IMG/VR virus record: IMGVR_UViG_3300032307_000533
Coordinates: 1-55,953 of that record
Reading direction: 5' to 3' (one strand)
Length of the DNA stretch: 55,953 nucleotides
DNA from: a virus
Taxonomy: Duplodnaviria; Caudoviricetes
Positions 38,717-40,924 of this stretch are shown piece by piece (positions within the stretch are counted from its first letter, which is position 1; each line of letters starts with the position of its first letter). The notes under the pieces are model-generated. The model ran no database searches and had not been told where the DNA came from. It saw only the letters and a program-made list of their open reading frames with translations. Made by a program: the position numbers and the translations under genes.

Positions 38717-38827
38717 ATGGACGTACACGAATGGTTTAAAACAGATGAATTTAAAAACCTACCTTACATGAAAAGGGTTTGGATTAGATTCAAGGTTGCG
38801 TTTTTTGAAACAATCTCAATGCAATGA
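38717..38827 (+). CDS. Small peptide (36 aa), first gene of the two-component operon
   Basis: MDVHEWFKTDEFKNLPYMKRVWIRFKVAFFETISMQ*; ATGA overlap with the next ORF. Confidence 0.55.
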   Translation: MDVHEWFKTDEFKNLPYMKRVWIRFKVAFFETISMQ

Positions 38828-39012
38828 AAAAATGGTCTTCAATTAGAGTAGTTTATTTATTAATAGCTCTAATATTAATGTCGGGTGTTATACTCGAAAA
38901 CTGGTATATAATTTCTTTTATTATTATCATGTTATTATTTGCGACAATAACTAAATTTTGCCCATCAAAATGGTTTTTTGAGAAACTTGGGTTTGGCAAA
39001 TCGGATATGTAA
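38824..39012 (+). CDS. Small membrane protein (DUF2892/YgaP-like)
   Basis: Two TM helices followed by TKFCPS.....LGF. Confidence 0.6.
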   Translation: MKKWSSIRVVYLLIALILMSGVILENWYIISFIIIMLLFATITKFCPSKWFFEKLGFGKSDM

Positions 39013-39899
39013 TGCAAATAGATAACACAATATCTAAAGGTTCTAAGATAGCCCTAATAATCTCTGGGTTAATTATGTTAGCCTTCTTTTCAGTACAAAC
39101 ATGTGTTGTTTTTGGGTTTTGTAAGCCATCTATTGAGATAGCCTATTTTGGTTACCTTTGTATCTTAGCGTTTACACCACCTTTTGTTTATGTTGTTCGT
39201 GAGTTTCTGGCTAAGAAAGCTATTACAGAAAAAGAATTAGATAAGAAAAATATTTACCTAGAACACGCTGCTAAAATAATTAGACACGATATGCACTCTG
39301 GTATTAACACTTATATACCTAGGGGTATATCTTCTTTAACAAGAAGGTTAACCGATGAGGCTATCGAAGATTTAAAATTAGCAGCGCCGTTAAAGTTATT
39401 AACGGAAGGTTTGAAGCACGCTCAAAAGGTTTACTCTGGCGTATATGAATTTACAAATTTGGTTAAGCAGGGTGAGACTTTAAATAAAAAGGATTGTAAT
39501 GTACACGACATTCTTAAAGATTATTTAGATCTAACTTCATATAAAGATCAGGTTGTTATAAATGAGGATTTACCAACTTTAGAGGTTAATGAACCTTTAT
39601 TTTGTACGGCCGTTGATAACTTAATTAGAAACGGTTTAAAATATAACGACTCACCAACAAAGTTTGTTAAGATATATCGTGAAGGTAATGATATTATCAT
39701 AGAGGACAATGGTCGCGGTATTACGAACGATGAGTTTGTTGAGTTATCTAAACCATATAAAAGAAAAGAGGGGCAAAAAGAGAGCGGTACTGGTTTAGGT
39801 TTAAACATTTGTATTGCAATATTAGGTGAACATAAATTTAGCATAACAGCTGAAAAATTAGATAATGGAACAAAAATAAAAATTAAAACAAAGGCATGA
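39012..39899 (+). CDS. Membrane sensor histidine kinase
   Basis: Two N-terminal TMs; H box IIRHDMHSG; N box DNLIRNGLKYN; G1 IEDNGRGI; G2 GTGLGLNIC. Confidence 0.9.
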   Translation: MQIDNTISKGSKIALIISGLIMLAFFSVQTCVVFGFCKPSIEIAYFGYLCILAFTPPFVYVVREFLAKKAITEKELDKKNIYLEHAAKIIRHDMHSGINTYIPRGISSLTRRLTDEAIEDLKLAAPLKLLTEGLKHAQKVYSGVYEFTNLVKQGETLNKKDCNVHDILKDYLDLTSYKDQVVINEDLPTLEVNEPLFCTAVDNLIRNGLKYNDSPTKFVKIYREGNDIIIEDNGRGITNDEFVELSKPYKRKEGQKESGTGLGLNICIAILGEHKFSITAEKLDNGTKIKIKTKA

Positions 39900-40327
39900 T
39901 AGATTCAATATTGTTAGTGGATGATGAAAACTTATTTCATTTAGTTTTCGAGGACGCGTGTAGTCTTTTAGATATAACACTATCGTTAAAAAGTGTTAGT
40001 TCAACAGACGAGGCGGAAAAAATCTTTATAGAAAGATTTAAGAATAAAGATACAAAACCAGAATGTGTTTTCGTTGATTTAAATATCATAGGTTCTAAAT
40101 ACGATGGTATAGAAATGGTTAGGAAGATTAATTTTGAGTATGGTAATGGTTGTGTTGTTGGTATAATATCATCTAGTTCCGATACGGAAGAACAAGCTAA
40201 AGCAATCGCCGCTGGTGCTCAGTTCTGGATAGTTAAATCAGATGATATTGAACCTAGACTTGAGGAGTTTAGAAAAGACTTTGATGGTTATAGGACTAGA
40301 AAAGCACCTTTTAAAGTTTATAAATAA
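39896..40327 (+). CDS. Stand-alone response regulator receiver domain
   Basis: ILLVDD, VFVDLNI (phospho-Asp), DGIE, ISSS, AGA..WIVK; no output domain. Confidence 0.92.
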   Translation: MIDSILLVDDENLFHLVFEDACSLLDITLSLKSVSSTDEAEKIFIERFKNKDTKPECVFVDLNIIGSKYDGIEMVRKINFEYGNGCVVGIISSSSDTEEQAKAIAAGAQFWIVKSDDIEPRLEEFRKDFDGYRTRKAPFKVYK

Positions 40328-40875
40328 TGCTAGAATTGGGTAAAGATATTGAGGAGAAATTATTAAAGATATACGCTGATAATGGTGTTATGTTAGAGGG
40401 TAATATTCTTAAATTAATAAAACCAGAAACCAGTGATTTCGCTGAATACCTTAAAACCGCTAGTGAAAAAGATAAAGATAATAGGAGAAAACGCTTAGAC
40501 ATAACCAAACAGATCCAGGCCCAGAATAGGGAACTTATATCTGCTCAAGAAGAGAACATGTCCTTAATGGATGAGTTGAGAGATGCGCTTAAAAAAGCTG
40601 AGGATGCTAAGAACAACGCTGAAAATGATTTAGATCTCCTACAAAAGAAAACCCAATTTGAGTTAATAGGTTCAATCATAAAGGTGGCTTTATGGATAAT
40701 CATTGGTGTTGGTGTTGTTACATCACTACTATATTTCTCGGCTTTAATGACTGGTAAAGACACCAAGATACTAGAGTCTGCTTGGTCCAACATGTTCGGT
40801 ATTTTATTAACAAATTCATTCAGTATTATAGGTACCATAATGGGTGTTAAATACGCATCGAAAGAGGATAAATAA
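40327..40875 (+). CDS. Coiled-coil protein with two C-terminal TM helices
   Basis: Heptads at about aa 40-110, then two hydrophobic helices; TAATG-coupled. Confidence 0.7.
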   Translation: MLELGKDIEEKLLKIYADNGVMLEGNILKLIKPETSDFAEYLKTASEKDKDNRRKRLDITKQIQAQNRELISAQEENMSLMDELRDALKKAEDAKNNAENDLDLLQKKTQFELIGSIIKVALWIIIGVGVVTSLLYFSALMTGKDTKILESAWSNMFGILLTNSFSIIGTIMGVKYASKEDK

Positions 40876-40895
40876 TCAAACAAAAATATTTTTTT

Positions 40896-40924
40896 AAAGG
40901 GTTAACGAAAGTTAGCCCTTTTTT
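40896..40924 (+). terminator. Intrinsic terminator closing the two-component operon
   Basis: AAAGGGTTAAC-GAAA-GTTAGCCCTTTTTT. Confidence 0.88.

Follow-up and report, generated by a model that had tools for sequence, protein, structure and literature searches.

A five-gene operon on a 55,953-base viral record (IMGVR_UViG_3300032307_000533, the whole of which is called the window here) appears to encode a phage two-component signalling pathway, in which a membrane histidine kinase and a single-domain receiver are followed by O5, a membrane protein of exclusively viral distribution. We propose that, by acting on O5, this phosphorelay modulates lysis or the permeabilisation of the host membrane, and we place the probability of such a full lysis-timing mechanism at roughly 0.5. 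Confidence differs among its parts: the genes very likely form a functional relay conserved in phages, O5 is favoured, with some reserve, as the output of that relay, and the module is probably tied to lysis. The timing of lysis largely sets phage fitness, and to our knowledge its control by a sensed signal is understood in few cases, chiefly the lysis inhibition of T4. Uncultured, T4-like phages from aquatic habitats, forming a very large group, retain a full histidine-aspartate phosphorelay whose membrane output is virus-only, and given this conservation, they may use a sensed signal to make a choice late in infection. If true, the proposal would add a new type of output to two-component signalling and, because the N-terminal part of O5 also occurs on soluble kinases, a new input-type domain as well.

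The operon consists of five open reading frames (ORFs) on the + strand at 38717–40875, which encode, in order, a peptide (o1), a small membrane protein (o2), the kinase, the receiver and O5 (36, 62, 295, 143 and 182 amino acids, aa). Consecutive ORFs overlap at ATGA, TAATG, ATGA and TAATG, and the operon is closed by a predicted intrinsic terminator with an 11-pair stem (4 G-C pairs), a 4-nucleotide loop GAAA and then a T run TTTTATTT (Table 1). A preliminary description of this DNA, made from its letters alone, had read the set as a self-contained, complete signalling system that was translationally coupled throughout and ended in a terminator, with a kinase possessing intact H, N and G boxes, three Cys in its transmembrane (TM) region and almost no extracytoplasmic domain, and with a receiver free of any DNA-binding domain. 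The gene set, the four overlaps, the hairpin with its T run and the residues and domains described below agree with that description on every one of these points.

The kinase carries an HATPase_c domain (PF02518; 48.2 bits against a cut-off of 26.4), and its H box (RH92DMHSGIN), N box (DNLIRNGLKYN), G1 box (DNGRG) and G2 box (GTGLGLN) are all invariant in 19 of 19 aligned relatives (alignment A1). Pfam HisKA gave no match to this protein, and we take H92 to be the phospho-acceptor by its likeness to the HisKA H-box motif. The solved chains nearest to the kinase profile are those of HK853 (2c2a and 3dge; E 4e-12), QseC, WalK, CpxA and EnvZ; the solved kinase 8f71_A aligns to profile positions 68–279. 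The receiver matches Response_reg (PF00072; 35.0 bits against 30.2) over residues 5–115 of 143, its active-site residues D9, D10, D61, S92 and K114 are invariant in 29/29 sequences (A3), and mean column identity in that alignment reaches 79%. Its 28 C-terminal residues, ending in PFKVYK, are conserved, and Pfam and NCBIfam detect no second domain in it, whether DNA-binding or LytTR; its NCBIfam matches fall far under their cut-offs, and overall nothing in NCBIfam or PADLOC came close to one. By sequence, the solved chains closest to the receiver are 3ilh (E 2e-5) and 4zyl (E 8e-4).

The spread of this gene set among phages is extensive. A single-sequence scan of IMG/VR with the kinase returned 57 pattern matches, 30 of which encode relatives; the receiver comes after the kinase in all 30, and O5 is next in all 25 whose contig continues. 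When alignment A1 was used instead, at least 545 of at least 599 matched stretches were found to encode kinase relatives, on contigs of up to 248 kilobases (kb). In a protein collection, 4117 relatives of the kinase and 5266 of O5 were retrieved at E <= 0.001, sitting on contigs of up to 343 kb. ORFs were further called and clustered on 109 loci plus the window, and among the 91 loci that continue for at least 1300 nucleotides past the kinase, the order kinase–receiver–O5 is kept without exception (adjacent in 82, with one intervening gene in 9), which makes O5 a fixed companion of the kinase–receiver pair. Four of five large related records encode a Gp23-type capsid protein, which marks the carriers as T4-like. 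Among one genome each of 185,579 species, single-sequence patterns, which reach close relatives only, found just two generic kinases at 24–25% identity, and the 50,697 records of cultured phages, a set from which close kin of the window may be missing, gave no match in distant-setting blastn with the region or in tblastn with the kinase, the receiver, O5 and a 998-aa neighbour.

Purifying selection on the module is apparent from comparison both of natural variants and of different loci. In a lake-water variant contig (run X4), which has 46 differing places over 39613–41000, all 9 of the receiver differences listed fall on third codon positions, with 75 further differences standing outside that list; the same contig has TTT inserted at 40888, past the O5 stop codon and ahead of the terminator. 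Differences in o2 are likewise rarest at the second codon position (for example, 24/10/32 by position against locus L046), and the lengths of both o1 and o2 are exactly kept across diverged loci, by which signs these small ORFs are coding. The o1 cluster was detected in 24 loci and has a conserved core, EFK..L...R.W.R.KVAF, with E11, F12, K13, L15 and R24 invariant in alignment A5; no family in Pfam, PHROG or NCBIfam matches it.

The input side of the module is where it varies. By hydropathy, the window kinase has two membrane helices, at about 7–38 and 43–62, joined by a loop of only a few residues, and its three membrane-part Cys (C31, C37 and C50) are positioned towards the outer face. These Cys are present in 39, 38 and 42, respectively, of 53 distinct short N-termini, and the PAS forms included in A1 lack them. 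This layout supports a kinase that would sense within or at the membrane, and the conservation of the Cys fits a role for its membrane part while being uninformative on redox chemistry. Four kinase forms can be distinguished: a short, TM-only form of 292–335 aa, to which the window kinase belongs; a TM plus PAS form of about 400–430 aa; a soluble PAS form (L174); and a form that has a signal peptide and a domain in the periplasm and that often follows a second kinase. Across all four, the receiver and O5 stay constant while the input part changes. Loci with two kinases (L081–L084, L092, L094–L098, L100, L101, L104–L106 and L109; e.g., L094:8001–11800) are arranged as kinase, a 204-aa signal-peptide/coiled-coil protein (c9), periplasmic-domain kinase, receiver and O5. 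A subgroup of short kinases of 363–371 aa (P0009 and P0073; L063, L066, L069 and L091) has ~68 extra residues inserted towards the C-terminus of the ATPase domain.

The small membrane protein o2 keeps company with one kinase form in particular: it adjoins 46 of 58 short and 3 of 3 mid-length kinases (49 of 61 together) and none of 41 long ones, counts that come from related phages and do not represent independent cases. The preliminary description had called o2 a DUF2892-like protein with an F-C-P motif. The motif stands, as C46, P47, S48 and K49 are invariant in 14/14 sequences and F45 is kept in 13/14 (A4); the family assignment falls short, the match to PF11127 (YgaP-like TM/DUF2892) reaching E 0.004 and 17.7 bits, under the 25.3 cut-off. 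With its two helices and Cys-Pro motif, o2 resembles the DUF2892/YgaP-like TM family and is not a member by the gathering cut-off. Its hydrophobic stretch covers residues 4–48. These observations fit a sensing device of the short kinase form that would combine o2 with the Cys-bearing membrane part. That o2 and the kinase form a direct disulfide with each other was considered and rejected as unlikely, because hydropathy and charge place the o2 Cys on the cytoplasmic side and the kinase Cys near the outer face, on opposite sides of the membrane.

In contrast to the variable inputs, O5 presents a constant architecture in which a soluble N-terminal part is predicted to precede a two-helix membrane hairpin. 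Its AlphaFold model (predicted local distance difference test, pLDDT, 86; 95 for the N part modelled alone) shows an N-terminal cap at 1–35, a long helix at 36–142 that enters the membrane as TM1, and a second membrane helix. The cytoplasmic section of the long helix, from 36 to about 115, differs among relatives by as many as ~50 residues in length (A2), and TM2 is near-invariant and polar-rich (WSN.FGILLTNSFSI.GTIMGVKY). The Atlas clusters of O5 are 100% viral, and a Pfam domain is found in none of the 120 relatives listed from the protein collection. Foldseek searches of the PDB, with the O5 model and with the N part alone, returned nothing at E <= 0.001; a structure search of BFVD with O5 gave as its sole match an uncharacterised homologue, A0A6J5PRT3; and the wide VIA-align search recovered generic hairpins and coiled coils alone (best Z 9.3 and 6.0). 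A complex prediction for the receiver with O5 (alignments A3 and A2) scored 0.02 against a mark of 0.32 and has no bearing either way.

The N-terminal part of O5 is found on other proteins too. Residues 1–97 share 49% identity with the N-terminus of P0266, a 335-aa soluble HisKA+HATPase_c kinase, and a profile of this part (A6) finds 183 clusters at E <= 0.001; among the 150 listed are five more architectures of the same kind (P0340, P0350, P0351, P0360 and P0362). In these six clusters of soluble fusion kinases, 318–349 aa long, cap and helix are joined directly to HisKA+HATPase_c, so the N part would be a portable module that takes the position of an input domain. Such an arrangement fits an O5 that receives a cytoplasmic signal, most simply from the phosphorylated receiver, and would equally allow it a sensor role. 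Two viral scans for loci encoding these fusions found no relative, and a metagenome scan found almost solely ordinary O5 genes. L174 proved to be a locus with a soluble PAS kinase, a receiver and O5, and not a fusion. P0315 (348 aa; O5 N part, helix and TM1 running into an FecCD permease) and P0265 (O5 with an N-terminal extension) were set aside as meaningful fusions, both being single records that may be chimeras or gene-call artefacts.

What connects the module to lysis is its gene neighbourhood in relatives. By a rough count, a lysis gene, either endolysin-type or the Phage_holin_4_1-like c4, lies no more than five genes from the module in 61 of 106 loci, and in 34 of the 64 with at least eight flanking genes; such genes occur on either side. 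Four unrelated endolysin types are represented: a PG_binding_1 plus Amidase_2 endolysin (c8, 21 loci), a GH19 endolysin (c16, 10 loci), a Peptidase_M15_3 endolysin (c54, 5 loci) and a 192-aa protein with a match to the phrog_33083 endolysin (c6, 27 loci; E 7.5e-13). Alongside them occur c4, a 140-aa borderline Phage_holin_4_1-like protein (39 loci) that matches the phrog_199 holin at E 1.4e-4, and c5, an 80-aa two-helix protein (35 loci) that adjoins an endolysin-type or DUF5675 gene in 31 of the 35. Typical gene orders are c5-c8-o1-c4-o2-kinase-receiver-O5 and o1-o2-kinase-receiver-O5-c5-c8-c4. Of 23 other loci, 12 have the ATG of o1 overlapping the stop codon of an endolysin gene, which is of the Amidase_2 type in seven, the c6 type in four and the GH19 type in one. 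When three endolysin families were searched for in a 187-kb genome (98% complete) and in one of 248 kb, each genome gave a single match, at 2.5 kb and 0.7 kb from the kinase, respectively.

Several further proteins were seen in these neighbourhoods. A DUF5675 protein (L107:7003–7473, E 3e-26; c91, 4 loci) occupies the endolysin position beside c5, which suggests a role in lysis. A 49-aa Cys-rich, lipoprotein-like ORF (c41), which looks like a putative outer-membrane spanin, lies between the receiver and O5 in L079, L080 and L087 (L087:9344–9493) and upstream of o1 in L038, L045 and L052. In the PAS-kinase group, a signal-peptide Endonuclease_NS protein (L018:7841–8473, E 8e-24; c47, 6 loci) is encoded two genes past O5.

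Taken as a lysis-timing relay, the module might operate as follows. Through its two-helix sensor with C31, C37 and C50, the short kinase would detect a signal within the membrane or on the outer side of it, a task in which o2, and perhaps also o1, may take part. It would then autophosphorylate at H92 and pass the phosphate to D61 of the receiver, and the phosphorylated receiver would contact the cytoplasmic N-terminal module of O5, whose long helix could relay the change to the conserved membrane hairpin. The hairpin, in turn, would promote or delay membrane permeabilisation and so tune the time of host lysis. Gene order and coupling, catalytic residues, phage-wide conservation, a variable input set against a constant output, lysis linkage in relatives and the topology of O5 form the computed basis of this scheme; from it we infer every phosphorylation step, the contact between receiver and O5, the effect on lysis and the nature of the signal.

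A number of observations weigh against the lysis-timing relay. Searches of Pfam, PHROG, NCBIfam and PADLOC assign O5 to no family at a meaningful score, holins and antiholins included, and the holin call for c4 is itself borderline (23.1 and 19.5 bits for two representatives against a 22.2 cut-off). Because fused kinases have the O5 N part in the sensor position, O5 itself may do the sensing instead of being the target. In two large genomes the sole Amidase_2 match lies 29 kb and 58 kb from the kinase, 45 of 106 loci have no lysis gene within five genes, and these counts are rough, resting on crude gene calls and on cluster names that each derive from a single scanned representative, or from two in the case of c4. 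The loci belong to related phages, so the lysis linkage may be inherited rather than selected. Finally, the window's 56 kb contain no homologue of the lysis-gene clusters; the preliminary description had suggested lysis timing as one possible role, and of this the neighbourhoods of relatives (61 of 106 loci) speak in favour, and the window, without a nearby lysis gene, does not.

The same observations can be accommodated by a relay that controls some other membrane process, such as superinfection exclusion, maintenance of membrane potential or envelope remodelling. The operon's distance from lysis genes in the window and in the 45 loci just mentioned, the dissimilarity of O5 to known holins, and the recurrence nearby of membrane and secreted proteins, e.g., the secreted Endonuclease_NS and proteins with four TM helices, would all suit such a process; we nevertheless hold it to be rather unlikely, since the commonest neighbours are four unrelated endolysin types and holin-like genes, and 12 of 23 loci show translational coupling of o1 to an endolysin. 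A different reassignment would make O5 the sensor, taking a cytoplasmic cue through its N module or a membrane cue through its hairpin and modulating the kinase, with the receiver acting on a protein outside the operon. The six clusters in which the O5 N part precedes HisKA+HATPase_c are in line with this, and kinase control by accessory membrane proteins is well established, as the excerpts on MgrB–PhoQ illustrate (PMC2789325, PMC8404706). It is an unlikely arrangement all the same: the kinases own varied input domains while O5 is constant, O5 comes after the receiver and not the kinase in 91/91 loci, and no other conserved candidate target stands beside the set.

A further reading is the hijacking of host signalling, in which the kinase and receiver would cross-talk with host two-component systems, either by draining phosphate or by phosphorylating host regulators, and O5 would serve as an anchor or scaffold. 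Single-domain receivers can serve as phosphate sinks, and the kinase core is a generic HisKA/HATPase_c one nearest to HK853, QseC, CpxA and EnvZ. Against such cross-talk, which we regard as quite improbable, the kinase and receiver are tightly co-inherited and translationally coupled, the receiver is highly conserved and divergent from cellular ones (best solved match E 2e-5), and the pair is constant across phages so diverse that their hosts must differ. Capture of a host operon in the recent past, as a moron without a role in the phage life cycle, is disfavoured as highly improbable. Two-component genes are typically cellular, and the preliminary description had itself named a recent host-derived fragment as the alternative that would undo its reading; yet the relatives are phage-borne and run to thousands (with kinase relatives on at least 545 IMG/VR contigs and no close cellular relative), the O5 clusters are wholly viral, the module appears to be under purifying selection, and the sole matches in species genomes are the two generic kinases, with the limit that distant cellular kin could escape single-sequence patterns.

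A bolder form of the lysis-timing relay, which we put forward only tentatively and consider doubtful, would make O5 the founder of a new class of phosphorylation-gated lysis proteins in a T4-like phage that reads envelope redox state or potential through the Cys-bearing kinase and o2. The phosphorylated receiver would then switch the helical hairpin of O5 to trigger or block hole formation. Were this true, a histidine-aspartate phosphorelay would for the first time be seen to set a lysis clock in a virus, and the O5 N-terminal module would represent a new domain for receiver binding or signal input that soluble kinases use as well. The lysis-timing relay itself is directly testable because its parts are small and defined, namely, H92, D61, the three Cys, the 62-aa o2 and the 95-residue N-terminal module of O5.

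Table 1. Operon features, with positions given in window coordinates
Feature	Position	Strand	Basis
o1, 36-aa peptide, operon gene 1	38717–38827	+	ORF
o2, 62-aa two-helix membrane protein, DUF2892-like	38824–39012	+	ORF, hydropathy, alignment A4
Membrane histidine kinase, 295 aa, without PAS domain	39012–39899	+	HATPase_c match, alignment A1
His92 codon, predicted phospho-acceptor (RH92DMHSGIN)	39285–39287	+	Sequence reading, H92 invariance
Single-domain receiver, 143 aa	39896–40327	+	Response_reg match, alignment A3
Asp61 codon, predicted receiver phospho-acceptor	40076–40078	+	Sequence reading, invariant in A3
O5, virus-only membrane protein, 182 aa	40327–40875	+	AlphaFold model, alignment A2
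Intrinsic terminator closing the operon	40896–40921	+	Predicted hairpin and T run

The window itself comes from an uncultured freshwater phage of very large size and covers part of its genome; CheckV rates the record as 16% complete, from which a genome of ~350 kb can be estimated, and it carries six tRNA genes, with nearly all ORFs on the + strand. The operon is flanked upstream by a HAD–nucleotidyltransferase fusion and proteins of no recognised kind, and downstream by further such proteins and a PolyA_pol-type enzyme. The fusion, at 36144–37511 and just upstream of the operon's neighbours, joins a HAD_2 phosphatase (E 5e-29) to an NTP_transferase nucleotidyltransferase (E 9e-13). The operon's guanine-cytosine fraction of 0.33–0.36 is unremarkable for the window and decides nothing on origin. 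Terminator-like sites in the operon region number 3, against 1.5 +/- 1.1 in shuffles, and no sigma-70-like site was found directly upstream of o1 on the + strand. Contigs from an independent freshwater metagenome run (X2) span 38765–41000 with zero differences; a 200-nucleotide contig on 40652–40850, from a run labelled RNA-Seq, is probably DNA and uninformative on expression.

Among known systems, the lysis inhibition of T4 offers the closest parallel in logic. In the excerpts of two accounts (PMC11413866, PMC8385771), it involves the holin T, the periplasmic antiholin RI and the cytoplasmic RIII, and thus a post-transcriptional, condition-sensing delay of lysis by accessory proteins that act on a membrane lysis protein; the window phage also has T4-like relatives, as judged by Gp23. 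Unlike the module described here, T4 lysis inhibition is not known to use a kinase, a receiver or phosphorylation, and no likeness in sequence or fold was found between O5, o1 or o2 and T, RI or RIII. A search for Phage_holin_T (PF11031) in the window and five related records, run without a positive control, gave no match.

In the cellular world, the staphylococcal LytSR system with its LrgAB and CidAB holin- and antiholin-like proteins, again as given in excerpts (PMC4830213, PMC5717393), similarly links a membrane-sensing histidine kinase to membrane proteins of holin or antiholin type that govern lysis. That system is transcriptional, with LytR binding DNA, whereas the phage receiver has no DNA-binding domain; LytS, as described there, is a multi-pass sensor of another kinase family, whereas the phage kinase has two helices and an HisKA-like H box; and the phage set is viral, with an O5 of no known family. 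The phage module is not a member of the LytSR/LrgAB group, and the likeness is functional alone.

Kinases of the LiaS/BceS type sense within the membrane. The phage kinase recalls them in its two helices and minimal outer loop, and the strict pairing of a small membrane protein with that form brings to mind MgrB, a small membrane protein that regulates the sensor kinase PhoQ in the excerpted accounts (PMC2789325, PMC8404706); o2 itself is like DUF2892 and not like MgrB. In the catalytic core and output, the nearest paradigms are class I HisKA kinases paired with single-domain receivers, namely, HK853–RR468 of Thermotoga and CheY-type outputs, as the best kinase matches are HK853 chains and a receiver-only output must act by protein contact. 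The phage relay differs from them in its divergent receiver, whose would-be partner is a membrane-anchored, helical, virus-only protein. The preliminary description had called the system undescribed, and within the literature searched, which excluded supplementary gene tables, no description of the module was found; in the excerpts of a survey of jumbo phages (PMC7824862), the only receiver mentioned is a divergent form, in no case linked to a kinase. What is new, relative to all of these systems, is phage-borne two-component signalling with a virus-only membrane output.

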